From: a virus
Direction: 5' to 3' (one strand)
DNA length: 46,646 nt
Virus record (IMG/VR): IMGVR_UViG_3300017446_000004
Location: 1-46,646 of that record
Of this stretch, positions 1 through 43,875 are shown piece after piece (position 1 is the stretch's first letter; every line of letters begins with the position of its first letter). The translations under genes and the position numbers were made by a program. Below the pieces are notes generated by a model. The model was not told where the DNA came from and searched no databases. It saw nothing but the letters and a program-made list of their open reading frames with translations.

Positions 1-123
1 ACGCGGTCGCCGAGGGCCTGTTCACGATCAAGGAGCACGACGGCCGGCTGATCGTGTGGCTGGATGACGTGGTGATCCCCGATCGCGGATGGTTCGGGTT
101 CACCAAGCAAGGCGAGTTGCGCT
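1..123. repeat. Terminal overlap copy 1, identical to 46524-46646 (circular closure or terminal redundancy of the contig)
   Basis: Read directly. The window begins acgcggtcgccgagggcctgttcacgatcaagg. The same string restarts at 46524 and runs to the last base. Confidence 0.95.
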
Positions 124-1727
124 ACATCGGCGCGAACTCGGGCCTATCGGGCGAGGCGCTGCCGCCAAACAAGTTCCTGACCATCCGCACGGGCGGCACG
201 CATGACTTTGCGTTCTACGGCATGGGGCTGGCGCATTGGTGCTATTGGCCCATTTTCTTCAAGCGCTCGGCGCTGAAATTCTGGGCGCTGTACCTCGAAA
301 AGCTTGGCCAGCCGACCGTCGCGATCGGCTTTCCCGCCGCAGACAAAGACGACAAGAAGAAGCTCGCCAGCCTGTTGACCACCGCCCAGGCGATCGGCAA
401 GGACTCGGCCGTTCTCGTTCCCGAGGCGTACCTTGCCGAGGAAAAGGTCAAGATTTTCGAGAGCCAGCGCAGCGGGAACAACGTCTCCGGCTACAAAGAT
501 TTCGTCGCCGAGAATAACGAGGCCATCATGCGCGTGGTTCTCGGTCAGCCGGGCACGTCCAAGGGCGTGAGCAGCGGGCTCAACAGCAATCAGGCCAGCG
601 AACACGCGGGGGTCAAGGAGGAAATCGTCAAGGCCGACTCTGACCTGATCACGGACGCGTTTGGCTCAACCTTCGGTGCGTGGATCACGCGATGGAACCA
701 CGGCGAGGACGTAAAGCCCCCGATCGTCCGCCGCATCCTCAAGGCTGGCGAGGATCTCAACGCGGTCGCCGAGCGCGACAGCAAGCTCGACGCCATCGGC
801 ATCCGTCGCAGCGAGGACAGCGTCAAGGCGACCTATGGCGACGGGTACGAGGTTGATCGCGTGTCGGCATCCGAACAGGCCGCGCAGGACAACGCGCTCG
901 CGCTGGCCAAGGCTGCGGCGACGCCGGCAGCGGGTGGCGGGAACGTCGCCGACATCGCGGCGCAGCGTCAAAAGCGGATTGCCGAGTTTGCGGCCCAGGG
1001 CGGCAGTTCTGTTTCGCCGCTGTACGTGTATCGTCCGGTCGCGCCGAAGACCGCGGACAAACTGGTCGCGTTCGCCAAGTCGATCGGCATAACCTCACCG
1101 CTCGCCGCGTCTGACATGCACGTTACCGAGCTATACTCAAAAACGGCCGTGGATTGGTTCGCGATGGCCGGCGAGGGATGGGACAGCGACACGTTGCAAG
1201 TCCAGGCGGGCGGGCCGCGGTTCGTGGAGCGGTTCGGCGACGCGATCGTCCTGCGGTTCGATTCGCCGACCCTGCGCTATCGTCATGCTTCCATGCGCGA
1301 GCGCGGCGCGTCATCCGATCACGATACCTACAATCCGCACGTGACGCTTGGCTACGGCTACCCGGATCTTGACCTTTCCAAGGTCGAGCCGTTCGGCGAG
1401 GAACTCACCTTCGGCCCCGAGATATTCGAGGCGATCAAGCCCGAGGGGTTCGATCCCGCAACGCTCGATTTCACCGCCGAGGACGAGGCCGCGATCGAGC
1501 GCCTCATTGCGGCGTCGGTCAGCAAGGCGTCTCCGCTGTTCGAGGCTATCGGCAACGCCATGCGCGATTCGCTGCAGGGCGTGACAACCGTTGAGGGCGC
1601 GCGCGTTGCCATCCTCTCCGCGGTCGAGCAATTCGACCCCACTGACCTCGCGAAGGCTTTGGCCCTCCCGTTGCTTGCCGAGCGCGCCGCGGCATCTGTC
1701 GGCGCTGATGACGAGGTGGACGCATGA
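3..1727 (+). CDS. Portal protein, DUF935 / Mu gp29-like, C-terminal part. It continues the ORF that starts at 46073; the joined product is about 725 aa.
   Basis: The frame is open from base 3 (AVAEGLFTIKEHDG...), in phase with 46073..46646 through the 123-bp overlap. DUF935-like stretch: FAFYGMGLAHWCYWPIFFKRSALKFWALYLEKLGQPTVAIGFP...AIMRVVLGQ. It lies directly downstream of the large terminase. Confidence 0.9.
   Translation, partial: AVAEGLFTIKEHDGRLIVWLDDVVIPDRGWFGFTKQGELRYIGANSGLSGEALPPNKFLTIRTGGTHDFAFYGMGLAHWCYWPIFFKRSALKFWALYLEKLGQPTVAIGFPAADKDDKKKLASLLTTAQAIGKDSAVLVPEAYLAEEKVKIFESQRSGNNVSGYKDFVAENNEAIMRVVLGQPGTSKGVSSGLNSNQASEHAGVKEEIVKADSDLITDAFGSTFGAWITRWNHGEDVKPPIVRRILKAGEDLNAVAERDSKLDAIGIRRSEDSVKATYGDGYEVDRVSASEQAAQDNALALAKAAATPAAGGGNVADIAAQRQKRIAEFAAQGGSSVSPLYVYRPVAPKTADKLVAFAKSIGITSPLAASDMHVTELYSKTAVDWFAMAGEGWDSDTLQVQAGGPRFVERFGDAIVLRFDSPTLRYRHASMRERGASSDHDTYNPHVTLGYGYPDLDLSKVEPFGEELTFGPEIFEAIKPEGFDPATLDFTAEDEAAIERLIAASVSKASPLFEAIGNAMRDSLQGVTTVEGARVAILSAVEQFDPTDLAKALALPLLAERAAASVGADDEVDA
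1014..1455 (+). other. 2H phosphoesterase-like (LigT / cyclic phosphodiesterase / Acb1-type) domain embedded in the portal ORF
   Basis: Two H-x-T motifs lie 73 codons apart: MHVTE (His codon 1119-1121) and PHVTLGY (His codon 1338-1340). They follow a strand-like LYVYRPV and an Ala-rich linker. Confidence 0.6.
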
Positions 1728-1855
1728 ACTCGAAACCGCACACCGGCCGCGCGACATTCTGGCGCGCGCTCGTTCTGACCTACGGCGCTACTGCGATCGT
1801 GGTGGTCGTCATAATGACCGGCGCGGCCGACGCGCTGTTGCGCGCCCTCGGATGA
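1724..1855 (+). CDS. 43-aa membrane micro-protein (MNSKPHTGRATFWRALVLTYGATAIVVVVIMTGAADALLRALG)
   Basis: ATGA overlap with the portal stop, one hydrophobic helix and high GC3. It is below the ORF-track length cutoff. Confidence 0.6.
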   Translation: MNSKPHTGRATFWRALVLTYGATAIVVVVIMTGAADALLRALG

Positions 1856-2040
1856 CCGCGCGGGTCCAGGGCGGCGCGCGCGGCATCCTCGCCGCGATCG
1901 CCTCGGGCCGTCTTGACGAACTGGACGCGCGCTTGCCCGAAGATCGCGACCTCCCACCGATGTCGGGCAGCGACCGCCGCGCCGTGATCCGCCGCGATCG
2001 CCTGCGAATGAGAAAGCTGGCGCACCGATCCCCGGTCTGA
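1852..2040 (+). CDS. 62-aa hypothetical protein
   Basis: ATGA overlap with the preceding ORF. High GC3 in this frame (the in-frame tail of track ORF 1591..2040). Confidence 0.55.
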   Translation: MTARVQGGARGILAAIASGRLDELDARLPEDRDLPPMSGSDRRAVIRRDRLRMRKLAHRSPV

Positions 2041-2097
2041 TATCAAATCCCCGGTCGGGTTTTCCCTCTCCTGGGCTCGGCTCGTTGATACTACCCT

Positions 2098-2159: not shown

Positions 2160-2399
2160 ATGGACAAAGAGAACCTCCGCATCATCACCGCCGAGCCGGT
2201 CGGTCAGAACGTCGTTGAGCGGCTTGAGGAAGTGCTCGAACGGGCGCGCAAGGGCGAGGTGTCGTCGGTCGCGATTGCCTACGTTGACCGCGACGGCATT
2301 TGCACGACGGGTTGGTCTAAACCGCCGTCTATGGGGCTGCTCGTCGGCGCAACCTCGGCACTGCTCGACAAGCTGCATCGGTCATGGAGCGGATCGTGA
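2160..2399 (+). CDS. 79-aa hypothetical protein (MDKENLRIITAEPVGQNVVERLEEV...)
   Basis: Internal ATG of track ORF 2085..2399, chosen because it lies after the terminator hairpin. Its end overlaps the next gene's start. Confidence 0.6.
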   Translation: MDKENLRIITAEPVGQNVVERLEEVLERARKGEVSSVAIAYVDRDGICTTGWSKPPSMGLLVGATSALLDKLHRSWSGS

Positions 2400-3256
2400 G
2401 ATTTGACGCCACCCCGCCAATCCGCCGCAAGCTGCAACCGCTGCAGATCAGTGCGCCCGATATCCTCGATTGGCTGCTCGCCAAAGATCCTACCGCGATC
2501 GGGTCTTATCTCGACATGGGCCCCGAGGAATATGCGCGCGCGTTCACCGCGGCGCAGACGGCCGGCACGGACATCGCCGATGACCTCTATTTCGCGATGG
2601 TGGACACGGTTGCTCAGGGCGGCACCGCGGCCGACTTTGCCGGGCTGGTCGTGCCGACGCTCAAGCGCAAAGGGTGGCTCGGCGGCGATCAAGGGGCGAT
2701 CGCCAGCCGCGTGCAACTGATCTACGCCACGAACCTGCAGCAAGCGCGCCGCGCCGGCCGTTGGGAGAGCTACCAGAAATCAAAGGCGCTTCTGCCCTAT
2801 CTGCGCGCGTTCACGGTCGGCGACGAGCGCGTCCGCCGCCCCCCAAAGTCGGCGCACGATCACACCGCTTGGGATGGCATCATCCTGCCAATCGATCATT
2901 GGTTTTGGGGGATCTACGGAACGGGCGGGTTCGATTTCCGCTGTCGCTGCGATACCGTCCAGATGAGCCGCTCGGAACTTGCGCGCTACCGCGGCGGCGT
3001 CACCTCCGACGACGACCTCGAGCACCGGATCAAGCGGATCGGCCCGCCGCGCTTCCTCGGTCCAGGCGCGTCGTTGCAGGAAAATCTTGCCGCGATGGTC
3101 GAGCCCTCGAACACCGCACCCGATCGAATGCCCGGCCTCCCTCCCGTCGATTCGCGCCGCACCGAAATGGATGGGCGCAATTTCTGGGGCACGGTGATAG
3201 CGGCACAATCTCAGGAGGACCTCGGACGCCGCCTTGCGGCCAACGGGTTCCGATAG
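2384..3256 (+). CDS. Head morphogenesis protein, phage Mu F-like / SPP1 gp7 family
   Basis: EYARAFTAAQTAGTDIADDL...YATNLQQARRAGRWESYQ...LPYLRAFTVGDERVRRPPKSAHDHTAWDGIILP...FRCRC matches the Mu F family pattern. Portal-proximal position. Confidence 0.85.
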   Translation: MERIVRFDATPPIRRKLQPLQISAPDILDWLLAKDPTAIGSYLDMGPEEYARAFTAAQTAGTDIADDLYFAMVDTVAQGGTAADFAGLVVPTLKRKGWLGGDQGAIASRVQLIYATNLQQARRAGRWESYQKSKALLPYLRAFTVGDERVRRPPKSAHDHTAWDGIILPIDHWFWGIYGTGGFDFRCRCDTVQMSRSELARYRGGVTSDDDLEHRIKRIGPPRFLGPGASLQENLAAMVEPSNTAPDRMPGLPPVDSRRTEMDGRNFWGTVIAAQSQEDLGRRLAANGFR

Positions 3257-3284
3257 AACGACGACCACCACGAAAGGGACTGCA

Positions 3285-4883
3285 ATGCTCAAACGACTTA
3301 TGATCGGGCTCGCGCTTCTATGCGCAGCCACGGGGCCCGCGCTCGCGCAGGACAAGGCGACACTCGACACGCGCGAATTGCTCGCGGCCTCCACTCAACC
3401 GGACGCGGCGATCGCCACCGACTATCGGTCGGGCGCATACGACGATCAGCCAACCTTTGTTCGCGTGCTCAAGGCTTACAAGCGCGTCACGGCCCCGCCG
3501 ATCCCGGTTCGTAAGCCGGTCGGAATGAACCTGTCGGGCTTGTCGTGGTATTCGTCGCGCCAGACGTTCGCGAACCTATTGCAGGGCGGGCAATGGAATA
3601 TCGATTGGAAGGTCATCCCGTCCGACCAACTCGACGCGCTCGGCTATCCGAAGACGTGGCCAGCAACCGGCGAGGTAAAGCGCCTGCTCGGCGCGCCAAC
3701 GGGCGGTTGGGTACGGCAAACAAGCGTGGCCTGTACCTGGGCGGGCTCGGGCGGCGTGAACTATTCGGGTGGCCTCAACGTCGTGAAGGGCGACCATAAG
3801 ATCGCGTTCGACATGCCGTCATGGAACGGCGCGGTCAAAAATACGTGGTTCGGGATTTACGGCGTCAACAACGCCGATCCGTTCCGGGATTTTGAGTGCC
3901 ACGACGCCAACCCGGCGAACGCAACGGGTAATGAGTTCTCCAAGGAGATCATCGCCAGCGCCAGCAAATATCCAGTGCTGCGGTTCATGGATTGGTCGGC
4001 GACCAACTCGAGCCCAGCGATCACCGAAGCCAACCGGCCAAACCCGCGCACGCTCGACAATCCAGGCATGGCGCTTGAGAATCAGATCCGCCTTGCAACG
4101 CTGGCCAATGCGGATTCGTGGATCAACCTGTCATGGAAGGCCGACGCGTCGTATATTCGTTGGGCCGCAAAGCAGGCGCATGACACGATCGCGCCTGGGC
4201 ACAAGGCATACGTCGAGTTGAGCAACGAGGTCTGGAACTATCAATTTTGGCAGGCGCAGGATAACCTTGCCGAAGCCGTCGCGCTCAATATCGACCCGAG
4301 CAACAAATATTATGGCGCGGCCAAAAACTATTCCCGCCGCGCGATCGAGGTTTTTAAGGTCTGGGAAGAGGTCTTCGCCGACCGGCCGGGCGATCTCGTT
4401 CGGGTGCTCGGCACACAGTCGGCAAACTCGGAAATCACCCGGCAGGAAATGAACTATCCGGGGATTGCCGACCATATCGACGCGATCGCGGGGGCCCCGT
4501 ATTTCAACCACGATTACAGCGTCCAGTGGACGCCGGAACTCCTGCGCGCCGGGATCGACAAGACCGTCGCACAGCAAAAGGCAACGTGCGATATCGTGCG
4601 CGTCAAAAAGCCGAAAGCGCTTTGCTACACGTACGAAGCCGGACAACACGAATTGGTAACGGGCGCAATGACCTATGACCAACTTGTCAGCCTCCAGCGA
4701 AGCCCGCTTATGGGCGAACTGTACGGCGAATATCTGACCAAGCTCGCCGCAGTCACGGATCTGACCATGCTGTTCAACGACGTGGACCCGATCACGAAAT
4801 ACGGCGCTTGGGGCCATGCCGAATACGGCGGCCAGACCGACGCGCCGAAGCAAATGGCGGTTGACCGCTACATGGCGCAGTAA
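3285..4883 (+). CDS. Sec-exported glycoside hydrolase-like protein (clan GH-A TIM-barrel type)
   Basis: SD gaaaggga precedes the ATG at 3285. Signal peptide MLKRLMIGLALLCAATGPALA/QD. PVLRFMDWSATN and YVELSNEVWN (Asn-Glu at 4224-4229) resemble the acid/base strand of clan GH-A enzymes. Confidence 0.6.
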   Translation: MLKRLMIGLALLCAATGPALAQDKATLDTRELLAASTQPDAAIATDYRSGAYDDQPTFVRVLKAYKRVTAPPIPVRKPVGMNLSGLSWYSSRQTFANLLQGGQWNIDWKVIPSDQLDALGYPKTWPATGEVKRLLGAPTGGWVRQTSVACTWAGSGGVNYSGGLNVVKGDHKIAFDMPSWNGAVKNTWFGIYGVNNADPFRDFECHDANPANATGNEFSKEIIASASKYPVLRFMDWSATNSSPAITEANRPNPRTLDNPGMALENQIRLATLANADSWINLSWKADASYIRWAAKQAHDTIAPGHKAYVELSNEVWNYQFWQAQDNLAEAVALNIDPSNKYYGAAKNYSRRAIEVFKVWEEVFADRPGDLVRVLGTQSANSEITRQEMNYPGIADHIDAIAGAPYFNHDYSVQWTPELLRAGIDKTVAQQKATCDIVRVKKPKALCYTYEAGQHELVTGAMTYDQLVSLQRSPLMGELYGEYLTKLAAVTDLTMLFNDVDPITKYGAWGHAEYGGQTDAPKQMAVDRYMAQ

Positions 4884-4902
4884 GCGCCCGGCGACGCGAC
4901 GC

Positions 4903-4941
4903 GCCGCGGTTAAGGTGGGCATTTCTCACCTTAACCGCGGC
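4903..4941. terminator. Bidirectional terminator hairpin between convergent genes
   Basis: Perfect 15-bp stem gccgcggttaaggtg / caccttaaccgcggc with a 9-nt loop, and a T-rich tract downstream on the + strand. Confidence 0.7.
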
Positions 4942-5299
4942 CGTTGCGCATTTCCTTTTCAGTCAGCACCCGACCAGCCCCAGGCGGCGGCGGGAAGCGC
5001 GGGACATAGCGGGTCATCCCGCCCGGCGCGCGACACGACCAGCAATTCAGAACGTCGGGCGCGGAGTTGAGAATTTCCTCACGCGCGCCGCATGGGCAGG
5101 CGAGGCACACCGTATGTCCCTTCGGATTGGAAGGGACCTCAACCGCCGTGATTGGCGCGGGCGCATATAGCTTCTGTATATTATCAGGCGCGATTGCAGA
5201 TTTGCGCTTGCGCGGGGGCGGCGCGGCCGAGGGCAGTGCGTCGCCGAATAGATCAGCCACGGCCCCCGCACCAGCCTCCACACTCACTGTCGGCGGCAT
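4931..5299 (-). CDS. Zinc-ribbon-like small protein (start uncertain: ATG 5299 or GTG 5260)
   Basis: HTVCLACPCG...(17 aa)...NCWSCRAPG gives CxxC...CxxC. There is a basic PPPRKRKS patch. It is the last gene of the minus-strand cassette. Confidence 0.55.
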   Translation of the reverse strand: MPPTVSVEAGAGAVADLFGDALPSAAPPPRKRKSAIAPDNIQKLYAPAPITAVEVPSNPKGHTVCLACPCGAREEILNSAPDVLNCWSCRAPGGMTRYVPRFPPPPGAGRVLTEKEMRNGRG

Positions 5300-6104
5300 C
5301 GTCTTCCACGTCGCTCATAGGCAGAACTGGATTGTTTTCGACATGATCCCGCAAGTCCGCAACGCTCATATAGCCGAATGAAAAACGACGCTCAGCCTCA
5401 TGGCGGGCCCACCAGTCTAACCCCTCGGGGTTGACCCGAGCGCGAGCAATGCGGCTTTTCTCGCTGACAAACGGGCAATGATCACAATTCCCGGTTCCTC
5501 TAGGCAGCATCAAATCAAAAGGCTGTTGCGTCCAGTATTTCAAAACGTCCTGCTTACGCACACCAGCAGATGCCAACGGAAAACCGAACCTCCGCCCTTC
5601 ATTTAATGCCTTTCTAGGCATTTCATAAACGCGATCATATTCGTCGGCTCTGAAACCAATTGTTTCCTGATAATCCCCTGACGAAAATCCTAGCGTTTCC
5701 ATAAAATCATGCATGACGCCGACTTTACAATGTTGCGTGCACCACCTCCCGCGAAGGGTAGAGAACAACGATTGTTTGCGTTCTATGAGCCTAGACAATG
5801 GCTCTCCATTTCGGCTTGCGCTGTTGTATCCGACTTCCTCAAATCGGCCTGCCGCGCCGACACGACGTAAGTCGGTGACAAACTCGAGCCAACGAACTCG
5901 AACGCCCCAACGGGTCGCGCATTCGTGAACGAAGCGGAGCGTTTCCTCGCGCTCCTTACCCGTGTTCGCAAAACAGACGTGTACGTCGTCGGGCAGCGTG
6001 CCCCCGTGCGCGTCAAGGGTCTGTTTGAGCATATACGCCGACGTTCGCCCTCCCGAAAACGAGATGAGCGCAGGGCCTTCGATGAAATAGGGATTGCCTG
6101 CCAC
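5253..6104 (-). CDS. PAPS reductase / PP-loop ATP-pyrophosphatase family protein
   Basis: PP-loop ISFSGGRTS near the N-terminus. C-terminal Cys motif TGNCDHCPF and terminal CGGWCGG. GTG start at 6104. The gene is conspicuously AT-richer than the rest of the genome. Confidence 0.8.
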   Translation of the reverse strand: MAGNPYFIEGPALISFSGGRTSAYMLKQTLDAHGGTLPDDVHVCFANTGKEREETLRFVHECATRWGVRVRWLEFVTDLRRVGAAGRFEEVGYNSASRNGEPLSRLIERKQSLFSTLRGRWCTQHCKVGVMHDFMETLGFSSGDYQETIGFRADEYDRVYEMPRKALNEGRRFGFPLASAGVRKQDVLKYWTQQPFDLMLPRGTGNCDHCPFVSEKSRIARARVNPEGLDWWARHEAERRFSFGYMSVADLRDHVENNPVLPMSDVEDDAADSECGGWCGGRG

Positions 6105-6106
6105 GA

Positions 6107-6205
6107 TCAGCCCTCGCTCTCAGGCCATATGGTTTCAGCCCAGGCGATCGCCCAGACCGCCGCGCCGAGCAGCGCGACGACGGCCACAGCGCCAATCCAG
6201 ATCAT
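6107..6205 (-). CDS. 32-aa membrane micro-protein (MIWIGAVAVVALLGAAVWAIAWAETIWPESEG)
   Basis: ATGA overlap with the upstream gene and a single hydrophobic helix. Translated by hand; below the track cutoff. Confidence 0.55.
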   Translation of the reverse strand: MIWIGAVAVVALLGAAVWAIAWAETIWPESEG

Positions 6206-6363
6206 TGGTATTCGGTCGCGAGCAGGATCAGGATGGCGACGCCAGCAGCCGCGAGGGCCAAGAGGCTCAAGACCATCTGGCCGAAGCGACCAAGCACAAA
6301 ACGGCGATCGATCCAGAAAACGACAGCGATCGCGACGGCGCAGAGAATGAAGGCAAGAAGCAT
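6202..6363 (-). CDS. 53-aa two-helix membrane protein (MLLAFILCAVAIAVVFWIDRRFVLGRFGQMVLSLLALAAAGVAILILLATEYQ)
   Basis: SD aagga precedes the ATG at 6363. Two hydrophobic helices. Translated by hand. Confidence 0.6.
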   Translation of the reverse strand: MLLAFILCAVAIAVVFWIDRRFVLGRFGQMVLSLLALAAAGVAILILLATEYQ

Positions 6364-6384
6364 GGGGGCGGTTCCTTGTGTCGT

Positions 6385-6534
6385 TTAGCGCAGGAGATTG
6401 CGCAGGAGGCGGCAGGCGTCGTTGCTGATCACCTCGGCAAGCCGCTTGATCGCCTCGCGTTCCTCGGCGGTCTGCGCAACGCTTTGCGTCTGGCGGATCG
6501 CCTCGCGGATCTGATCCTCGGGCGTGCGGATCAT
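6385..6534 (-). CDS. 49-aa hypothetical protein (MIRTPEDQIREAIRQTQSVAQTAEEREAIKRLAEV...)
   Basis: ATGA overlap with the stop of the upstream gene at 6531-6534. It is the in-frame tail of track ORF 6385..6780. Confidence 0.55.
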   Translation of the reverse strand: MIRTPEDQIREAIRQTQSVAQTAEEREAIKRLAEVISNDACRLLRNLLR

Positions 6535-6701
6535 CGGAACACCAGCCCGAGCGCGACGCACGCGCCGAACGCGGCGAGGGGGATGGCCAGCCCGAGGGAG
6601 AACGCTACGGCGACCACCTTGACCGGAGCGGCGAGGATCACGCCGAGCGGCGTTCTGCGCTCGGTCGTGACGGGCGGGCGGTTTCGATAATCCCGGTTCA
6701 C
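6531..6701 (-). CDS. 56-aa membrane protein (…LGVILAAPVKVVAVAFSLGLAIPLAAFGACVALGLVFR)
   Basis: GTGA overlap (GTG 6701-6699, upstream stop 6700-6698). The C-terminal half is hydrophobic. Confidence 0.5.
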   Translation of the reverse strand: MNRDYRNRPPVTTERRTPLGVILAAPVKVVAVAFSLGLAIPLAAFGACVALGLVFR

Positions 6702-6976
6702 AACGCGCGCTGCCGAAAATAGAGCGAGCACGCCAGCTTGAGGCCATCCGCGTTCGGGCCCTTGTAGGCGATGATCGCATCCGCCGCGGTCTGGTCGTCG
6801 CGGGTCAGCGTGTAGCGGTACGCGATCCGGCAAACGTTCGTCCCACTCATTTCGACGAACACGCGGTCGCGCTCGGTCTGGGCAGTGCTGACGAGCGTCG
6901 CATAATTGGCGATCGCGGCGTCAAGGTCGGGCATCGGGGCGGCTGCGCTGGCGAGCGCGAGGGCGGCGAGGATCAT
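6698..6976 (-). CDS. 92-aa exported protein
   Basis: N-terminal signal-like MILAALALASAAAP. ATGA overlap with the upstream gene. Confidence 0.65.
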   Translation of the reverse strand: MILAALALASAAAPMPDLDAAIANYATLVSTAQTERDRVFVEMSGTNVCRIAYRYTLTRDDQTAADAIIAYKGPNADGLKLACSLYFRQRAL

Positions 6977-7149
6977 CGTTTAGCCTTTCTCGGGTTGAGG
7001 TCGATTTCGTGGGGTGCGCCCTTGGCGTCGGCGCGGGCGGCTTCCTGGGCGGCGGCGATCGACGGATGCGGCATGTTGCCCCACTGCCCCGCGCGCGACA
7101 GGTTGATCCGGTCGATCGCCGGGAATGTCTGGATCGTGTAGCGGATCAC
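6973..7149 (-). CDS. 58-aa hypothetical protein
   Basis: GTGA overlap with the upstream 51-aa ORF (GTG 7149-7147, stop 7148-7146). In frame with track ORF 6973..7185. Confidence 0.5.
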   Translation of the reverse strand: MIRYTIQTFPAIDRINLSRAGQWGNMPHPSIAAAQEAARADAKGAPHEIDLNPRKAKR

Positions 7150-7301
7150 TTGCCGACCTGCTCGAGCAATGCGGCGGTCTGGCACATGCCTGCGGCGATC
7201 GCGTGCTCGCGGCGGGCCTCGTCAACCATGCCCGCGCCGCGCAGGGCGTGCGCCCGGTTGCAGTGCTTGGCGGCGGCTTGGCGAAGTTGAAAGCTCGACA
7301 T
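7146..7301 (-). CDS. 51-aa hypothetical protein (MSSFQLRQAAAKHCNRAHALRGAGMVDEARREHAIAAGMCQTAALLEQVGK)
   Basis: SD gagg lies 6 nt upstream of the ATG at 7301. High GC3. Translated by hand. Confidence 0.55.
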   Translation of the reverse strand: MSSFQLRQAAAKHCNRAHALRGAGMVDEARREHAIAAGMCQTAALLEQVGK

Positions 7302-7359
7302 GGGGAACCTCGTTGCGTTTGTGGTGCAATCCGTATCGCACCAGGGAATTAAAGAAGCG

Positions 7360-7629
7360 TTACCAAGGCGTACCCGGATAGACCCGATCCTTGTAATATT
7401 CGCGACCGTAGCGCTGTTGCCAGTACGCGGCGCGGATCAGCGCTTTCTTGCGTTCGTAATACGCGGCGGCACGCTCGACCGGACCCCAATCGTTATTGAG
7501 CGCCCTCTCCGGCCGCGTGAACATGTGGCAAATCTTGGCGGCTGCGGTACGGCAAAGCCGATCCTCGATCTTGAGCATGTCAACGCTGTTGAGGTTACGA
7601 ACTGCGCGCTTCTGTTGGACGAGGGCCAT
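7360..7629 (-). CDS. 89-aa hypothetical protein, first gene of the minus-strand cassette
   Basis: SD aggag precedes the internal ATG (MALVQQKRAV...) of track ORF 7360..7713. Confidence 0.65.
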   Translation of the reverse strand: MALVQQKRAVRNLNSVDMLKIEDRLCRTAAAKICHMFTRPERALNNDWGPVERAAAYYERKKALIRAAYWQQRYGREYYKDRVYPGTPW

Positions 7630-7691
7630 TGTGTTTGCTCCTGTATGAGCGCCTCCGCGCCCTGCGATTCGTGCAATATCACATAGCGCGG

Positions 7692-7715
7692 GCATTGCAA
7701 GCGAATTGCGCAAGG
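7692..7715. promoter_or_regulatory. Candidate operator pair in the divergent control region: GCATTGCAA + ATTGCGCAAG
   Basis: The palindromic cores TTGCAA and TTGCGCAA are 5 nt apart. The same 9-mer and 10-mer recur at 33786-33803 in the other divergent intergenic region. Confidence 0.5.
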
Positions 7716-7769: not shown

Positions 7770-8759
7770 ATGGAACATGATGTCGAAATCGAAGTTTTCC
7801 GCGCCGACACTCGGGCGAGCCGTGGGATCACCGCCGAGCATATCGCCGAGGTTGCGGCGTTCGATTGCGACGCGCACCCGATCCCCAACGTTCTCGGGCA
7901 CCCGGCCGGCGACAAGCCCGCCCACGGCCAAGTGAAGAAATTCCGCGCCGAGGGCTCCACCCTGTTCGCCACCGTGCCCGCCACGGCCGTCAAAATCTGG
8001 GAAGGCATCAAAAAGGGCGAGATCCTCAATCGATCGATGGCGTTTTTCGACCCCAGCCACGAAGCGAACCCGACGCCGGGCAAGTGGGCCCCGCGTCACC
8101 TCGGTTGGCTTGGCGCTTCTGCCCCAGGCATCCCCGGCATGACGCCGCTTTCCCAAGTCGCGAAGGGCCTGGCCTTTTCCGCAGACGGTGAAACGGTGGA
8201 CGTGCTAGGACCGCCTGCCGATGCGGTGGTTTACGCCCCGCCCGCAACAACCGTTTTCACCGTCCACGACGACCCCAAGGAGCCTACCCCAATGGAACGC
8301 ACCCCCGAGCAGATCGCAGCCGACGAACAGCGCGCCCGCGAGTTCACCGCACGCGAGGACGCGATCGCCGCGCGCGAGGAAGCCGCAGCCAAGCGCATCC
8401 GCAGCCAGTTCGAGGCGAGCAACAGCGCCGCGATCGACGGGCTCGTTCGCGAGGGCAAGATCCTGCCCGCCGAGGTCGCCGACCTCAAGACCGCGTTCAA
8501 CGCGCTCGACCCGGAAGCCGAGGAACTGACCTTCGGCGCTGGCGACAAGGCCGTCACCTCGACCGCGGCGTCGCGCATCCTCACGTTCATGGCGTCGGCC
8601 CTGTCCAAGCGCGTACCGCTCGGCGAGCGCGATTCCCCAGCCGGCGAGCCGGGCGAGCGCGAGTTCGCCAGCCCCGCCGAGTTCCGCGCCGCTGCGCACG
8701 CGATGGCCAAGGATGAGGGCATCACGTTCGAGGCCGCAACCGAGAAACTGGCGGGCTGA
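7770..8759 (+). CDS. Capsid maturation protease / scaffolding protein (P2 gpO / Mu gpI-like)
   Basis: The N-terminus (GITAEHIAEVAAFDCD...VLGHP...HGQVKKFRAEGSTLFATV...NRSMAFFDP...HLGWLGASAPGIPGM) resembles the gpO-type serine peptidase. The C-terminal half is Ala/Glu-rich coiled coil. It lies upstream of the decoration and capsid genes. Confidence 0.7.
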   Translation: MEHDVEIEVFRADTRASRGITAEHIAEVAAFDCDAHPIPNVLGHPAGDKPAHGQVKKFRAEGSTLFATVPATAVKIWEGIKKGEILNRSMAFFDPSHEANPTPGKWAPRHLGWLGASAPGIPGMTPLSQVAKGLAFSADGETVDVLGPPADAVVYAPPATTVFTVHDDPKEPTPMERTPEQIAADEQRAREFTAREDAIAAREEAAAKRIRSQFEASNSAAIDGLVREGKILPAEVADLKTAFNALDPEAEELTFGAGDKAVTSTAASRILTFMASALSKRVPLGERDSPAGEPGEREFASPAEFRAAAHAMAKDEGITFEAATEKLAG

Positions 8760-13242: not shown

Positions 13243-13617
13243 ATGGCCAAATACATGAACCCGAACGTCATCGATCTGGCGCTCAACGACATCAAGACCA
13301 ACGCCAACAAGCTTGTGGTCTGCGCGCAACAGCCGACGACGTTTGCCGAGGCGAACGTCACCTATGCGTTGGGCTCGGTCGCGATGACGAGCGCCGACTA
13401 TACGCTCGCTAACGGCGACGTTTCCGGCCGCAAGGTGACGGTTGCCGCGAAGGCCGCGGTTCCCGTCACGGTCAGTGGCACCGCCACGCACGTCGCGCTG
13501 ATCGATACCGTCAATTCGGTCTTGAAGCTGGTCACGACGACGACCTCCACGGCGGTCGCGGCAGCCGGAACCGTTGACGTGGGCTCGTTCAAAGACGAGA
13601 TCCAGGCCCCCGCCTGA
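13243..13617 (+). CDS. 124-aa hypothetical virion-module protein
   Basis: SD gaggg, high GC3, located in the connector/tail block. Confidence 0.7.
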   Translation: MAKYMNPNVIDLALNDIKTNANKLVVCAQQPTTFAEANVTYALGSVAMTSADYTLANGDVSGRKVTVAAKAAVPVTVSGTATHVALIDTVNSVLKLVTTTTSTAVAAAGTVDVGSFKDEIQAPA

Positions 13618-15326
13618 TGGTAAGCCGTCCGTTTACGCTCGACGATGCGTCAACCCGCCCGCAGTCGTGGGTTGATGCTCAGGACGCGGCAACAATCGCG
13701 CTTGACGCAAACGGACGGCTTGCCTCCTGGGCCTTCAAGGGCACCCAGGCGGGGCAGTTCACGCCGGTATCCGCAAGCGTTGCCCCGCTTTACACCCCCG
13801 CCGATTTCGCCGGCGCTTTCCCTGCATTCAAATTCACCGCCACCCGCGTTGACCTGATAACCGCGGCGTTTACGGGCCCTTCGCAGCCCTGCACCGTCGT
13901 TTACGTCTGGCAAGAGCCATCGGGCGGGCAAAACCCGTATTGCGTCGTCGCTGATCACCGCAGTACGGGCGGCAGCGATGGCGGCCGCGTCACGGTGTTC
14001 AACGCTTACGCAGCGCAAAACACCATCGCGATCGTGCCGAGCAACGCCTCTGGCCAGCGCCTGAATCTCACGGGCAACGCGTTCAACAAAGTCAACGTGA
14101 TGGTCGTTGAATATAACGGCCCATATTCGCGGATCTATTTGAACGGCGTCACTACCCAACCCAAAAATCTACTTCTGTCGTCGGTAATCTTTGGCGGCGG
14201 CATGACGATCGGCGGCAAATTCAACGACGCATACACCGCGTTCAACGGGCTATTTGGCGAGCAGGCTGTCTATCCGGTCATCTTTAACGATGCGGATTGG
14301 GACAAGATCACTCAAGGCACGTCATGGAAATGGGGGCAGCAAGCCTCCATCCCTGACGGCGCGACCTACAAGGCTGCGCGGCCGATGGTTTCGGACGGTA
14401 CGCCCGATCCGGCTACGCCTGCGCCGCTCGCCCACGCACACGCTATTTCGTCGCCAACCGCGTCGTTCCGCACCCCTGCCGCAGTCGATCCCCTCGCGCA
14501 CTCACACGCGGCCACCTCGCCGACGTTGACGGCTGGCACGACGATGGCGGCGCAGGACATGGCGCAGGCGCACGCGGCCACCTCGCCGGGCGTTTCGTCC
14601 AAGCAGGCGATCGCGGCGAACTCGCTACAGCACGCGCACACCGAGACGCCGACCAGCCTGCTCTATCAAACCACCGTCGCGGCGCTGTCATCGATCCAGG
14701 CGCAGGCGATGACGGCTGCGGGGCTTGGCGCTGGCGGGGCGCTGGTCGTCAATAGCGCTGCGCAGGCTCACGCGGCCGCTGCAGCGGCGTTGACGGCTCG
14801 GCGGGCCCTTGTGTCGCCAAGCAGCCTAACGCAGCCTCACGCGCTTGCTGCGGCGGCTTTCACGCACGTTTCGCCGCCCGACAACATGACGCCAGACCCG
14901 CTCGACTTCGGCGTTGACCTCGGCAGCATCCGCGACCGCGTGATCCTGCTCAAGTATTTCCTGTCCGTGACGGACGTGCTCGACGCGAGCGAAGCGCTAG
15001 ACGAGACGCTCCCGGCCGCGCCGCCTGCCGCGTTCGTAGGCGTGGCGAGCGAGCGCGCCGAGCCGAACAAGACGATTGGCGGACATTCGCAGCGGGTGCG
15101 GGTTGAGATCGCCATCCTCTTCGCCGAAAGCACGTCGCGATTTGACCGCGAGGCCCGCGATCAACTCGACCTGACCCGCCGCGCGCTGATCCGGCAACTG
15201 GTCGCGTGGACGCCGAAGAATGCCGGCGAGGGGCTCGAATATTCGCGGTATCGGGTGGTCAAGATCGGCGACGGGCTGGCCTGGGGCGAGGTGACGTTCA
15301 CGACCTCTTATCGGCTGACCATCTAG
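13617..15326 (+). CDS. Fusion protein: N-terminal LamG/concanavalin-like lectin domain, HxH repeat stalk, C-terminal neck/tail-terminator-like domain (Mu gp37 / DUF3168-style)
   Basis: N-terminus: SWVDAQDAATIALDANGRLASWAFKG...PAFKF...VVEYNG...IYLNG is LamG-like. The middle has seven repeats of about 22 aa. The C-terminus (LPAAPPAAFVGVASERAEP...RVRVEIAILFAE...LEYSRYRVVKIGDGLAWGEVTFTTSY) has the pattern of small neck proteins and sits just upstream of the tube gene. Confidence 0.6.
   Translation: MVSRPFTLDDASTRPQSWVDAQDAATIALDANGRLASWAFKGTQAGQFTPVSASVAPLYTPADFAGAFPAFKFTATRVDLITAAFTGPSQPCTVVYVWQEPSGGQNPYCVVADHRSTGGSDGGRVTVFNAYAAQNTIAIVPSNASGQRLNLTGNAFNKVNVMVVEYNGPYSRIYLNGVTTQPKNLLLSSVIFGGGMTIGGKFNDAYTAFNGLFGEQAVYPVIFNDADWDKITQGTSWKWGQQASIPDGATYKAARPMVSDGTPDPATPAPLAHAHAISSPTASFRTPAAVDPLAHSHAATSPTLTAGTTMAAQDMAQAHAATSPGVSSKQAIAANSLQHAHTETPTSLLYQTTVAALSSIQAQAMTAAGLGAGGALVVNSAAQAHAAAAAALTARRALVSPSSLTQPHALAAAAFTHVSPPDNMTPDPLDFGVDLGSIRDRVILLKYFLSVTDVLDASEALDETLPAAPPAAFVGVASERAEPNKTIGGHSQRVRVEIAILFAESTSRFDREARDQLDLTRRALIRQLVAWTPKNAGEGLEYSRYRVVKIGDGLAWGEVTFTTSYRLTI
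14410..14875 (+). repeat. Intragenic degenerate tandem repeat, about 66 nt (22 aa), seven units, core L-A-H-A/S-H-A-x-S-P
   Basis: Units start near 14424, 14491, 14559, 14623, 14690, 14754 and 14826. Peptides: PLAHAHAISSPT, PLAHSHAATSPT, MAQAHAATSPG, LQHAHTETPT, IQAQAMTAAG, AAQAHAAAAA, LTQPHALAAA. Confidence 0.8.
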
Positions 15327-27689: not shown

Positions 27690-28031
27690 ATGTCCACCCC
27701 CGACACAGAACCAACGCCGATCGTTTTTGACGACAGCATGACGACCGCGCAGATCCGGCAATTCCTTTCCGCAACGGCGTTTGTCGTTACCTCGATTCCC
27801 GTGTTCGCCGCCCTGTTCAGCAGGCGCGACATTGTGGGGATTGTCGATCTGCTCAAGAGCGAGCCCGCGCTCCAAGCTATCGGCGTTCTCAGCGCCTTCG
27901 CACTTCTGGTCTATCGTCAATGGGCAACCCGCCGCCGCGTCGCCAAGGGCACGGTGATCGCTGCCGCGTCGCCGGTCGCCGTGCTCAAGAGCGAGGTCGC
28001 GGGCTCGCCTACGCCGAGTGCCGAATCGTGA
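27690..28031 (+). CDS. Holin candidate (two transmembrane helices)
   Basis: 113 aa. Helices FLSATAFVVTSIPVFAALFS and AIGVLSAFALLVYRQW. GTGA coupling to the endolysin. Confidence 0.6.
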   Translation: MSTPDTEPTPIVFDDSMTTAQIRQFLSATAFVVTSIPVFAALFSRRDIVGIVDLLKSEPALQAIGVLSAFALLVYRQWATRRRVAKGTVIAAASPVAVLKSEVAGSPTPSAES

Positions 28032-28567
28032 CGGTCGATGACGTGCTCGATGACGTGCTCGCTAAGGAAGGCGGATACGTCAACGACCCGTTGGACGCGG
28101 GCGGCGAGACAAACCACGGCATCACGATCGCGACGGCGCGCGCCAACGGGTACAAGGGGCCAATGCGCGACATGCCGCAGTCGGTTGCCCGCGACATCCT
28201 GTTCCGCCGCTATGTCGTCGCGCCCGGCTTCGACAAGGTTGCCGTGATATCCGCAAAGATCGCCGCCGAGTTGGTGGATACGGGCGTCAACATGGGGCCC
28301 GATACCGCGGGCAAGATCCTGCAGCGCTGCCTTAACTCGCTCAACAACAACGGCAGGGATTTCGCCGTGCTCGACGTTGACGGCGATGTCGGCAAGGCCA
28401 GCCGGGCGGCGCTCAAGGTGTTTCTGGCGCGCCGCGGCGACCTGGGCGAGGCGCGCCTCCTTGTCCTGCTCAACGCGTTGCAGGGCGAGCGCTATGTCTC
28501 ACTGACCGAGACGCGCGCCGCGAACAAAGCCTTTATGTTCGGATGGCTCGCGCGGATCATGCCGTAA
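28028..28567 (+). CDS. Endolysin, glycoside hydrolase family 108 N-acetylmuramidase with a C-terminal peptidoglycan-binding domain
   Basis: LAKEGGYVNDPLDAGGETNHGIT is the GH108 signature. The C-terminal LDVDGDVGKASRAAL...FMFGWLARI resembles the associated PG-binding domain. GTG start at 28028 inside track ORF 27920..28567. Confidence 0.85.
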   Translation: MTVDDVLDDVLAKEGGYVNDPLDAGGETNHGITIATARANGYKGPMRDMPQSVARDILFRRYVVAPGFDKVAVISAKIAAELVDTGVNMGPDTAGKILQRCLNSLNNNGRDFAVLDVDGDVGKASRAALKVFLARRGDLGEARLLVLLNALQGERYVSLTETRAANKAFMFGWLARIMP

Positions 28568-29457: not shown

Positions 29458-29730
29458 CTAGACCAGAAACTTGCCAACGACCGCGGAGCGGAACGTCTCG
29501 AACCGTTGCTCGTCGCGGCGCTTCCTGGCGTTTCGTTCCGTCTCAGGTTCCGCGCCGAGATCCGCGAGCGCGGCGTCGATCACCTCGCGGAACTCGGCAA
29601 GGCGGGCCCCCTTTAGGGGCCCACTGTTCCAATATAGACCGCGCAACCGCCAGACCGCCCAATTCCGTTGACGGGCCGCGGTTTGCTTGCCTGATGGCGG
29701 TCGGAATTTACGCAGCGGGTCGCGTGCCAT
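29458..29730 (-). CDS. 90-aa hypothetical protein
   Basis: The ATG at 29730 overlaps the ERF stop by 1 nt (TGATG). In frame with track ORF 29458..29919. Confidence 0.6.
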   Translation of the reverse strand: MARDPLRKFRPPSGKQTAARQRNWAVWRLRGLYWNSGPLKGARLAEFREVIDAALADLGAEPETERNARKRRDEQRFETFRSAVVGKFLV

Positions 29731-30722
29731 CACTCGCCCCCGTCGTCGGCTGGCATCAACCGCGCAACCGCATTCGAGCCCGCCGCGATCGCTCGAGCGT
29801 ACAGGTCGGGGTGTTCGCCCTGCAAACGCCCCATTGCCTTCGCGCCCTTGGTCTGAATACGGACGAGCGCGTCGCGATCGGGGGCCGCGGCGCAGTCCAG
29901 TTCGTATTGCTCGGTCCACCCTTCGGCCGTGTTCACGTCGGGCCCGGTCTTCGCGGGAGGATCTGCGCGATCGGGTTCGGCTTTGCTCGCGCCGGGCAGC
30001 GCGAGCACGCCGCTAAGGCGCGCGTGCGTTCCCGAACCGATCACGACCGCCTTATCCTTGATGTTGAGACGGCTAAACCATGCCGCATATTCGCCGCGAT
30101 CCGCCGCCGCTTGGGCGTCCACGATCAGCCCCTCTTGCCGGTCGTTCATGTGGTAATTTTCGCGGCCGATCGCGCCGTCGTTATCCTCGCCATCCTCGAT
30201 AATGTTGAGCATCCCTTTCATCGTGTAGCGCTTGAGGTAGCTGGATGCTGACCCGAGGGATTGGATAGGCGAGCGCCCTGGGCCCGTGTCTGCCGGGCCC
30301 TTCATCACCGCGCCTTCCTCGATGAACCCGTTTTCGTGCCGCAAGATCGGTTGCACCGTCACAAGCTGCCCCTCACTGCCGAGCCGAAAGTCGATCGACA
30401 GACGGAATCGAGTGAGCACCGGGAGCGCCGCACGGTGCATATCCTCGAACTTGGCGTAACGGTGCTTATCGGATTTCCCGCCCTTGAATATCACCGGCAT
30501 GGCGCGCAACGCTGCGGCCTTGTCGCGGTTAAATTCGGCCTGTCGTTCGCGGTCTTCCATTTGGTTCATAAGGTTGAACATCGCCGCGGCTTTCGTCGGG
30601 TCAACGTCGGGATTGGTCAGCGCCTCGCGCAGCATCATCAAGCGCTGATCGCCGGGGATCGAGGTCGAGCTATGCGACACGGCGCGGGTTTCGGCGGTTG
30701 CCAGTTCGCGGGAATCGGTCAT
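29730..30722 (-). CDS. erf: ERF-family single-strand annealing protein
   Basis: AALPVLTRFRLSIDF...LVTVQPILRHENGF...QSLGSASSYLKRYTMKGMLNIIEDGEDNDG matches the ERF core. SD aagga precedes the ATG at 30722. Confidence 0.8.
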   Translation of the reverse strand: MTDSRELATAETRAVSHSSTSIPGDQRLMMLREALTNPDVDPTKAAAMFNLMNQMEDRERQAEFNRDKAAALRAMPVIFKGGKSDKHRYAKFEDMHRAALPVLTRFRLSIDFRLGSEGQLVTVQPILRHENGFIEEGAVMKGPADTGPGRSPIQSLGSASSYLKRYTMKGMLNIIEDGEDNDGAIGRENYHMNDRQEGLIVDAQAAADRGEYAAWFSRLNIKDKAVVIGSGTHARLSGVLALPGASKAEPDRADPPAKTGPDVNTAEGWTEQYELDCAAAPDRDALVRIQTKGAKAMGRLQGEHPDLYARAIAAGSNAVARLMPADDGGE

Positions 30723-30742
30723 CGGTATTTCCTTCGGTTGGA

Positions 30743-32044
30743 TCAATGGCCCTCAAGCCAGTGTGTCGAGAAATCGAGCGCGGAGGTCGAGCGCTTCGCT
30801 TCGATCGGGAACCACGGCTCGCCGGGTTCATAGGCTTGGCTATGCAGCACAAACGACCGCTTTGCCCGGTCAATATCCATGATTGCCCGGTTGTATAGAT
30901 CGGTCGGCCGGCGCGTCACGCGCGCCTGCCGCGCCGCGCCCTGATCGTCGCCGATTGCGTTGTTCATCGCCGTCCCCTCGGGGACATGGAAGAAATCGAA
31001 CTCATAGGCGAGCAGATTGGGCACGCCGTCTTTTTCCTTGAACACGTACCAACACGCCAGTTCGTCGGGCCGAATCTGGATAGCCGCGACAATCGCGCGC
31101 TCACGCTCGGTTGCCTCGCCGATGATCTGCAACCCCCCAAGCCGGATTGCCTCGGCGGCATCGCGATAGGTGACGGCTTGCACGTGATAGCGATTATAAC
31201 GGATCGTGTCGGCGATCGCCTGCTCAAGCTCTTTGCCGTTCGGATTGGCAAAAGTCTTGAGGTCATCCCACATGTCGGCGCGGAGATAATCCATACGCGC
31301 TTTCATCCGCAAGCCGTGCTTGTCGGTCCAGAAAATCGACACCTCGGCAGCGCCTCCCGTCAGCAAAGCGGCAATCTCGTCGTTGCTGCGGATCTGTTCC
31401 ATGTCGGTCGCGATCTGGTCGAAATACTTGCCGGGCAGGGCTATGCGATCGCCGCGCGCGGCTTCCCATTCCTGCAACGCGATTTGCCAGATCGGGCCCT
31501 CATATCCGGCATCAACAAGGCGCTGCGCCTGCTCTCCGACCGAGCCGGTCTTTTTCTCGCCGAGCGCTTCCAACGCCTTACCCATATCGGTCCCCGTGAA
31601 AAGCGTTGCCTTGGGGAACTCGGACTTTTCGAGCGCGCGCACGTATTGCTGATCAAATAGCTCGGGCTCGAGCCGGGCCGTATGGTATGCCTTGCCGAGG
31701 ACCTGGGCCGCGGTCGCTTCCTCGTCCAGTTCTGCGCGGTCGGGATCGAGCCACGACCGACGCCAGAACGTCGCCGCGCTCACGCAAAGCTTTTGCAAGC
31801 CCGAGGCGCTCAACCGCGGCACGGCATGATAGATTTCGGACGGCAGGCCGAAATAGATGCCATCCTCAATCGCATCAACGCGGCGTTGCATTTCCGCGCG
31901 GCGCGCCGCTTGGTCGTCATCCGCCTGGGCGGGCGCGGCGACCTTGGCGGCGGGCTTTGCCGCAGCCGGCCGCTCCACTTTTGCAGCGGGAGCGGCGGGC
32001 GGCGGCACGACGGCATCAAATGCCAGATCGAACGGGTTGGACAT
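30743..32044 (-). CDS. PD-(D/E)xK exonuclease, RecE-like / DUF3799 type
   Basis: SASGLQKL...GKAYHTARLE...AEVSIFW...KARMDYL...WDDLKTF...RYHVQAVTY gives the E, D, DxK and Q..Y elements. The start is taken at MSNPFD (32044). Confidence 0.75.
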   Translation of the reverse strand: MSNPFDLAFDAVVPPPAAPAAKVERPAAAKPAAKVAAPAQADDDQAARRAEMQRRVDAIEDGIYFGLPSEIYHAVPRLSASGLQKLCVSAATFWRRSWLDPDRAELDEEATAAQVLGKAYHTARLEPELFDQQYVRALEKSEFPKATLFTGTDMGKALEALGEKKTGSVGEQAQRLVDAGYEGPIWQIALQEWEAARGDRIALPGKYFDQIATDMEQIRSNDEIAALLTGGAAEVSIFWTDKHGLRMKARMDYLRADMWDDLKTFANPNGKELEQAIADTIRYNRYHVQAVTYRDAAEAIRLGGLQIIGEATERERAIVAAIQIRPDELACWYVFKEKDGVPNLLAYEFDFFHVPEGTAMNNAIGDDQGAARQARVTRRPTDLYNRAIMDIDRAKRSFVLHSQAYEPGEPWFPIEAKRSTSALDFSTHWLEGH

Positions 32045-36255: not shown

Positions 36256-36405
36256 ATGTCTATGTATGACCCCGGCAACCCCCAACACCTTGACCACCTC
36301 CACCGCCACAAGGCGGCATGGACGCCCGAGCGCGAGGCCGCGCTACAGGCGCAGTTTAAGGCCGAAGGCAAAGGCCGCTACGCGAAGGCCGCACCATGCG
36401 CGTAG
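36256..36405 (+). CDS. 49-aa hypothetical protein (MSMYDPGNPQHLDHLHRHKAAWTPEREAALQAQF...)
   Basis: SD from repeat copy 2. Its end overlaps the rusA start. Confidence 0.55.
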   Translation: MSMYDPGNPQHLDHLHRHKAAWTPEREAALQAQFKAEGKGRYAKAAPCA

Positions 36406-43699: not shown

Positions 43700-43875
43700 G
43701 CCCGGCGCAGCAAGCCCGCCACATGTTCGCCGATGCCGTCCAGGCGCAGGGCCCCGCGTGGCGCAACGCCGCCGACTCGATCCGAGCCGGGAATTATGGC
43801 AATGCGTGGACGGTCGCCGCGATCGGCGCGATCGAGAAAGCACTCAGGACAGGCGCAGACGATGACGTTGAGTAA
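43696..43875 (+). CDS. 59-aa hypothetical protein
   Basis: ATGA coupling. Translated by hand (MSPAQQARHMFADAVQAQGPAWRN...). Confidence 0.5.
   Translation: MSPAQQARHMFADAVQAQGPAWRNAADSIRAGNYGNAWTVAAIGAIEKALRTGADDDVE

Follow-up and report, generated by a model that had tools for sequence, protein, structure and literature searches.

The viral sequence IMGVR_UViG_3300017446_000004, analysed here over its whole length of 46,646 nt (the window), encodes a 725-residue phage portal protein of the Portal_Mu family. According to profile matches and a predicted fold, this protein contains an inserted two-histidine (2H) phosphodiesterase domain of the Acb1 family (residues 483–636; 996..1457, + strand). 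The fusion of such enzymes to portals was already known; what is specific here is its occurrence in a second portal family, Portal_Mu, and the internal placement of the enzyme, ahead of a conserved tail. The interest of the arrangement lies in whether the virion delivers an enzyme that degrades immune signals. We favour the reading, to which we give a probability of roughly 0.5, that the portal arm carries a counter-defence Acb1 that would be freed by a protease and co-ejected with the phage DNA.

The portal insert belongs to the Acb1 family

In a Pfam scan of the portal protein, the Acb1 profile PF23474 matched an envelope of residues 490–630 (1017..1439) with E 2.5e-33 and a score of 115.3 bits, where the cut-off is 27, and the match covered positions 2–138 of the 144 in the profile. 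By contrast, the 2′-5′ RNA ligase-type model PF13563 scored 17.8–21 bits against a cut-off of 27 (E 0.0035), and the LigT-type model PF02834 was not reported. Membership of the LigT/RNA-ligase group was rejected because the PF13563 score fell under the threshold. Among proteins of the PDB, the best phmmer match of the domain was the portal protein of Pseudanabaena phage Pam3 (8HDS residues 470–610, E 7e-19), followed by Acb1 of Erwinia phage FBB1 (7T26, E 1e-9).

We also generated an AlphaFold2 model of residues 470–725 from a 71-sequence alignment, and a separate model of the full-length protein. The former had a mean predicted local distance difference test (pLDDT) score of 88, with values above 90 across the Acb1 domain. 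The predicted fold is the duplicated strand-helix-strand arrangement of 2H enzymes, in which each HxT motif begins a strand. According to Foldseek, the closest PDB structures were the Acb1 entries 7T26 and 7T27 (E 2e-9, template modelling (TM) score 0.78, or 0.80 from the full-length model); a Burkholderia phage phosphodiesterase and then Escherichia coli LigT (TM ∼0.5–0.6) ranked below them. The named top matches in BFVD were annotated as Acb1. E. coli LigT and 2′,3′-cyclic nucleotide phosphodiesterases (5LDM, 1JH6) share the 2H fold and the two HxT/S motifs with the window domain, but at TM ∼0.5–0.6, 11–14% identity and Pfam scores below threshold.

Together, the profile scores and the model place the segment among the 2H phosphoesterases, in the Acb1 family and outside the LigT group. 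The earlier note on this DNA, made from the sequence alone, had described a LigT/Acb1-like 2H segment embedded in a DUF935 portal ORF and had proposed a structure prediction and fold search as a check; the call was right, and the 2H fold returned by Foldseek and the Pfam scores narrow it to Acb1. PHROG and RefSeq label the family of the domain ‘RNA ligase’, which on our reading is a legacy annotation of T4 57B, itself Acb1. In RefSeq, T4 57B (L001:8953-9411) is still called an RNA ligase, and phrog_755 bears the same label.

The domain lies in one uninterrupted open reading frame (ORF) with a portal core. The first and last 123 nt of the window are identical (1..123 and 46524..46646), which makes the window an entire phage genome, either circular or terminally redundant, with 46,523 unique bases. 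The portal ORF runs across these ends on the + strand. Its N-terminal part (residues 1–191; 46073..46646) starts with an ATG at 46073 that overlaps the terminase stop codon by 1 nt; its continuation (1..1727) resumes coding at 124 and ends with a stop codon at 1725–1727, so that the whole ORF is 46073..46646 plus 124..1727. The same genome is present in another rotation as the ENA metagenome contig ERZ27250342:k141_364151 (46,664 bp), where the 725-residue ORF is internal and uninterrupted. The joining of the portal across the window ends is therefore not an artefact. A frameshift separating the segment from the portal, which the earlier note had considered, was ruled out together with an assembly artefact: the ORF is continuous in the ENA contig, and the same architecture recurs on separate contigs in 105 of the 120 related clusters listed.

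Phage Mu is the type member of the Portal_Mu family. The Portal_Mu core of the window protein (PF06074, formerly DUF935) spans residues 81–430 (46313 across the junction to 839; E 1e-69), and the best fold matches of the full-length model were the portals of phages JBD30 and Mu. Directly upstream lies the large terminase gene, terL (44364..46073, + strand; PF17289 Terminase_6C), for which the ENA record calls a 493-residue product, and downstream lies the gene of a MuF-like minor head protein (2384..3256, + strand; PF04233, E 6e-8; phrog_220, E 3e-36). Profile match, fold and the gene order TerL–portal–MuF all fit assignment to the Portal_Mu family.

The catalytic residues are conserved

To establish residue equivalences, the domain was aligned to Acb1 of phages T4 and FBB1, using the T4 residues as defined by Hobbs et al. 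2022 (PMC9117128); conservation was counted over 105 Acb1-carrying Portal_Mu relatives. The first catalytic motif, H524-V-T526 (1119..1127, + strand), lies within MHVTE (1116–1130) and corresponds to H44 and T46 of T4 Acb1, with each of the two residues kept in 104 of the 105 relatives. The second, H597-V-T599 (1338..1346, + strand), lies within PHVTLGY (1335–1355) and corresponds to H113 and T115. Its histidine is present in all 105 relatives and its threonine in 100, the other five having serine. The two histidines are 73 codons apart, the strand-like start LYVYRPV is at residue 491 (window position 1020), and a tail of ∼90 residues follows the domain, all exactly as first read from the DNA.

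Conservation extends beyond this tetrad. Y492 (equivalent to T4 Y12), R495 and R557 are invariant across the 105 carriers, and E627, the equivalent of the adenine-contacting E141 of T4, is kept in 99. T4 F107 aligns to H591, a position at which 103 of the relatives have Tyr, Phe, His or Trp. The near-invariant residues specific to the Acb1 clade of the window are R495, W536, W544, R557 and E624. The domain thus shares with T4 gene 57B and FBB1 Acb1 (7T26/7T27, PF23474, PMC9117128) the family, the predicted 2H fold, the tetrad and the equivalents of Tyr12 and Glu141. The T4 and FBB1 enzymes are free proteins of ∼150 residues with a mobile C-terminal lid, whereas the window domain is internal to a 725-residue portal and its lid region continues. 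Taken together, alignment and model support well both the catalytic machinery and the family membership. By extension, the domain would be a catalytically competent cyclic-oligonucleotide phosphodiesterase of the Acb1 type.

The Acb1 domain is an accessory module ahead of a native tail

A search with the full-length protein listed the identical sequence and 119 other clusters. Portal_Mu was combined with Acb1 in 105 of these 120 clusters (680–786 residues; many on contigs of 37–53 kb), while the other 15 were Portal_Mu only (513–625 residues) and shared 51–67% identity with the window protein across the aligned core. In the core, the insert-free relatives were closer than many of the Acb1-bearing ones. 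Eleven aligned insert-free relatives lacked exactly residues 483–636 (996..1457), which set the boundaries of the domain, and all 15 kept the C-terminal tail of ∼90 residues. The relatives without the domain thus retain what lies downstream of it, which bears out the description of the domain as embedded. Judged from these alignments, the enzyme is a ∼150-residue module spliced in frame between an Ala-rich post-core segment and the native portal tail.

Since the insert-free relatives keep both core and tail, the comparison identifies the Acb1 module as accessory and dispensable for portal function. On a neighbour-joining tree of the portal core, the presence or absence of Acb1 changed ∼11 times over the 120 sequences, a rough estimate that points to repeated gain or loss of the module. 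These data bear on the view that the domain is an enzymatically dead element of the crown or of assembly, or that the fusion is artefactual. We consider this very improbable: the tetrad is kept in 104–105 of 105 relatives, portals without the insert exist, so that the domain is dispensable, and the reading frame runs unbroken both in the rotated ENA contig and in over 100 further clusters. Nothing positive was found in favour of such a role, and the Pam3 paper describes canonical portal parts only.

The module is flanked by flexible segments. Upstream lies an Ala/Gly-rich helix and flexible linker (residues 440–482; 867..995, + strand), for which AlphaFold2 predicts helices at residues 440–455 and 469–482; the linkers on both sides of the insert (residues 454–468 and 632–641) had pLDDT values below 50 in the full-length model. 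In a 42-sequence alignment, there were no invariant columns within residues 431–491. The second linker precedes the native C-terminal tail, a predicted helical module (residues 641–725; 1470..1724, + strand) with three helices in the model of residues 470–725 and four (643–658, 662–675, 681–693 and 697–716) in the full-length model. The tail had no match in Pfam, PHROGs, a PDB profile search or the phage collection. A home-made profile of the tail gave weak matches (best E 1e-5, ten more at E <0.03), always at the same position, the extreme C-terminus of Mu-like prophage portals, which places the insert in the ancestral post-crown arm. A metagenomic protein of 249 residues (P0011) consists only of an Acb1 domain (residues 4–154) and a portal-type tail (residues 158–248); this may be a gene call cut short or an Acb1-plus-tail protein that stands alone.

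Portal–Acb1 fusions are widespread

Queried with just the domain, a word-index search for homologues gave one match and was superseded by an exhaustive HMMER search, which returned 1,858 cluster representatives at E ≤0.001. The best 150 of these had a median length of 605 residues; the domain lay mostly at about residues 450–640 and mostly ended the protein. The carriers were then typed by a Pfam scan of 85 of the best cluster representatives, those of ≤1,000 residues. Portal–Acb1 fusions accounted for 56 of the 85 (48 with Phage_portal_3 and 8 with Portal_Mu). The other carriers included five XkdF-type prohead proteases, two DUF2213 proteins and one MuF protein, and several representatives had toxin domains or ADP-ribosyltransferase domains, the latter of a kind known from polyvalent proteins. 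By general phage biology, we class these carriers as capsid-interior or packaged proteins. For the protease–Acb1 fusions, the evidence is this Pfam scan of carriers. Database rows named ‘prohead protease’ were first read as further protease fusions, a reading that we rejected: gp129 of Roseobacter phage DSS3P8 (L079:3010-3462; Acb1 match E 6e-29), labelled ‘prohead protease, HK97 family’, is a misannotated stand-alone Acb1 of 150 residues.

Cultured phages also carry the fusion. According to tblastn, the domain occurs inside portal-annotated genes of the Synechococcus phages Ssp-JY39 and Yong-M2-251, Pseudomonas phage phiPSA1, Pam3, Aminobacter phage Erebus and many Rhizobium RHph and RHEph phages (RHEph04-06). 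Even phrog_146, a portal family, has a profile that matches the domain at its C-terminal end. The cultured Acb1-portals (Pam3 gp3 and others) have an enzyme of the same Acb1 clade (37–48% identity) at the capsid-interior end, near terminase and MuF genes. Pfam confirmed Phage_portal_3 with a C-terminal Acb1 in Pam3, Ssp-JY39 and Sinorhizobium phage HMSP1-Susan. In these three portals (PF06381), the enzyme is at the extreme C-terminus, whereas in the window portal (PF06074) it precedes the native tail. Portal records of the phiPSA1 type are annotated DUF1073, which we take to be an older name of the Phage_portal_3 family.

No record of the phage collection covered at least 80% of the portal query, and of the 74 Mu-like prophage portals identified in reference genomes (≤39% identity), not one had Acb1 or a close tail within 10 kb. 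From these searches, the Portal_Mu version of the fusion appears so far to be a metagenome-only clade.

Iyer, Burroughs, Anantharaman and Aravind 2022 (Viruses 14:1977, PMC9503650, section 3.4.5) described fusions of 2H domains to MuF or portal proteins and proposed that they are packaged in heads and injected to counter (oligo)nucleotide immune signalling. The same architecture and proposed function thus appear there, in one comparative-genomics sentence without experiments; that sentence gives no breakdown by portal family and mentions neither internal insertion nor proteolytic release. Portal fusions are unmentioned by Hobbs et al. (PMC9117128). The earlier note knew of no characterised portal–2H fusion. 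This holds for experimental work, of which we found none; as an architecture, the fusion is abundant, present in Pam3 (8HDS) and described by Iyer et al.

Topology and possible delivery of the enzyme

Portal proteins, whose ring is the passage for DNA into and out of the head, assemble as dodecamers, giving ∼12 copies per head. In the Pam3 portal structure, the C-terminal barrel and crown lie furthest inside. By analogy, and from the order of domains after the portal core, the insert would face the capsid interior; for the window portal, the order of core and then crown follows from Pfam and fold matches. The earlier note had placed the domain at the DNA exit, but its post-core, C-terminal position, read against the Pam3 structure, points to the interior instead. 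A domain tethered in the interior cannot reach the cytoplasm at ejection, which calls for either proteolytic release or action in the producing cell. Delivery by the virion is plausible, but needs a release step.

In the reading that we favour, the job of the Acb1 domain would be counter-defence against the nucleotide second messengers that trigger abortive infection. Its targets would be the cyclic di- and trinucleotides of cyclic oligonucleotide-based antiphage signalling systems (CBASS) and possibly the cyclic triadenylate (cA3) of type III CRISPR systems. Known Acb1 cleaves 3′3′-cGAMP and cyclic trinucleotides independently of metal and rescues the phage from CBASS. The fusion would build ∼12 copies of the enzyme into every procapsid at the portal vertex. 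During head maturation, the protease would cut loose the part behind the crown, as is reported for the final 124 residues of Mu gp29. The freed fragment, of 16–28 kDa, would stay in the head and leave with the DNA, so that the next host would contain the enzyme ahead of all phage gene expression.

The precedent for release comes from Mu. According to cryo-electron microscopy, the Mu virion lacks the last 124 residues of gp29, an absence attributed to protease I (PMC11915804), and the modelled Mu and JBD30 portal chains comprise just 369–405 residues. Mu gp29 belongs to the same Pfam family as the window portal (23% identity over the core), and the predicted fold of the latter matches the Mu neck structures. 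The insert and tail of the window portal occupy a post-crown region equivalent to the C-terminus that is removed from gp29. In the window, the candidate for such a release is a head maturation protease with a scaffold-like C-terminal half (7770..8759, + strand; phrog_976, E 8e-42; no Pfam match). The two systems differ in that gp29 has no enzyme domain and the window protease is in another PHROG family, and cleavage of the window portal would be by analogy. A further indication comes from Pam3: the domain is in the sequence of entry 8HDS, yet 8HDS was missing from the fold matches of the domain model, which suggests that the virion map lacks the domain or leaves it unmodelled. In addition, the carriers of the Acb1 clade are of capsid-interior or packaged types, as selection for packaging predicts. 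MuF-fused polyvalent proteins, T4 Alt and internal proteins are likewise cases of an accessory enzyme tied to a component of the capsid interior. The portal differs from such injected effectors in being a fixed ring that is not ejected, so that a release step is needed. In T4, stand-alone acb1 (57B) directly adjoins ipI, annotated as an internal virion protein (L001:8592-9411); this adjacency may connect Acb1 with head-delivered proteins also where no fusion exists.

Several findings weigh against this reading. With respect to substrate, two of the four aromatics that stack on bases in T4 Acb1 are not kept: W74 aligns to E560, and W147, of the lid, to G633, next to F634. These equivalences come from the sequence alignment alone, which is gapped near W74. 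Moreover, the lid is a free C-terminus in T4 and FBB1 Acb1, whereas the equivalent residues here (627–636) continue into the low-confidence linker and the tail. With respect to release, the window protease (phrog_976) has no BLAST similarity to Mu protease I (phrog_328) and is in a different PHROG, so that the analogy of cleavage rests on position. No conserved cleavage motif was visible in the variable N-terminal linker in the 42-sequence alignment, and no capsid-targeting or cleavage signal was identified in the window portal fusion. With respect to delivery, a folded domain of 16 kDa would have to pass the tail channel. Scans of reference genomes pointed to no host, and the literature yielded no experimental, biochemical or virion-proteomic work on any portal–Acb1 protein.

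The lack of W74 and W147 equivalents in the alignment and the non-terminal lid mean that the substrate range may differ from that of T4 Acb1. An active 2H enzyme could instead act on RNA 2′,3′-cyclic phosphate ends, in repair after anticodon-nuclease attack, on 2′-5′ oligoadenylates, on ADP-ribose-derived cyclic phosphates, or on Thoeris or other signals. All of these chemistries are covered by 2H enzymes (PMC9503650), LigT and plant cyclic phosphodiesterase are weaker fold matches of the domain, the clade has near-invariant residues of its own, and the family bears the PHROG and RefSeq label ‘RNA ligase’. We nevertheless regard a different substrate as unlikely: the Acb1 model matched ∼30 orders of magnitude better than the LigT-type models, and the equivalents of the adenine-contacting Glu and of Tyr12 are conserved. 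In addition, no RNA ligase or kinase-phosphatase partner was found among the ∼30 window ORFs scanned, in a scan that was non-exhaustive.

If the substrate is as for T4 Acb1, the same enzyme could act on the same targets at a late stage in the producing cell, as part of portal protein that is free, unassembled or bound to procapsids, and degrade CBASS signals as virion assembly sets them off. The fusion would then serve co-expression and stoichiometry, and the copies in the virion would be incidental. The portal gene lies within the late head module, no cleavage site is evident, and an interior, tethered domain cannot otherwise get to the cytoplasm. Consistent with such late action, late-stage virion assembly has been reported to be critical for CBASS activation (bioRxiv 10.1101/2023.05.21.541620), and the ejectosome protein gp15 of ICP3 and T7 has been reported to inhibit CBASS through its unincorporated excess (bioRxiv 10.1101/2025.07.23.666291). 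By contrast, co-expression alone does not call for an insertion that is internal, in frame and retained in more than 100 diverged lineages, and T4-like phages do well with stand-alone acb1 genes. The other carriers of the clade are also of types classed here as capsid-interior or packaged, which argues that packaging, and not just late timing, has been selected. On balance, we view action confined to the producing cell as possible and less probable than release and co-ejection.

The distinction matters for how the fusion is to be understood. Work on Acb1 has so far concerned a free protein that is produced once infection has begun; in the window phage, as in hundreds of its relatives, the enzyme is hard-wired into the one protein that no head can do without. 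If the enzyme is released and injected, the particle itself delivers a counter-defence before phage gene expression, which would change the view of the timing of CBASS-type signalling and its evasion and would mark out the portal C-terminus as a natural site for packaging cargo. If it acts only late in the producing cell, the arrangement amounts to no more than a gene fusion of an ordinary sort, with an anti-defence enzyme already known. A broader proposal treats the post-crown arm as a general slot for cargo in Mu-family and other portals: the head protease would sever it inside the procapsid, and 12 free Acb1 molecules per virion would then be co-ejected with the DNA, erasing cyclic-nucleotide signals before expression begins. 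We advance this tentatively, as a doubtful extension of the reading that we favour. Were it true, the enzyme would be the first virion-delivered one that degrades immune signals, and some CBASS or type III CRISPR signalling would have to be countered from the first moments of infection. Cultured carriers (Pam3, phiPSA1, RHEph04 and Ssp-JY39) and natural insert-free relatives with exact boundaries make the question of delivery testable now.

Other features of the genome

The genome encodes an ERF recombinase (29730..30746, − strand), RusA (36396..36866), a GH108 endolysin (27920..28567) and the terminase subunits TerS and TerL (43733..46073); no transposase turned up among the window ORFs scanned. 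Given ERF, RusA, TerS and TerL, the phage does not look transposable despite its Mu-type portal.

Immediately after the portal gene, there are two tiny ORFs (1724..2042), the first of which overlaps the portal stop codon. The product of this ORF (1724..1855; 43 residues) is highly hydrophobic. Both ORFs are called in the ENA record, at 43 and 62 residues, with no family. Further downstream, MuF and the head protease are separated within the head module by an island of unrelated genes (3234..7700). This island contains an ORF of 549 residues (3234..4883) with a signal peptide and no family match, a protein similar to phosphoadenosine phosphosulfate (PAPS) reductase (5253..6104, − strand; phrog_424, E 5e-45) and two small ORFs without a match (4931..5299 and 6698..6976, − strand).

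Elsewhere, a 569-residue ORF (13617..15326) has a tail-terminator match only at residues 424–568, leaving its N-terminal 420 residues unexplained; these may represent a fusion, or a start called too far upstream in a GC-rich genome. Finally, a 218-residue phage protein (41361..42017) ends in a PEP-CTERM sorting motif (PF07589, E 1e-5), which hints at a Gram-negative, exosortase-bearing host.

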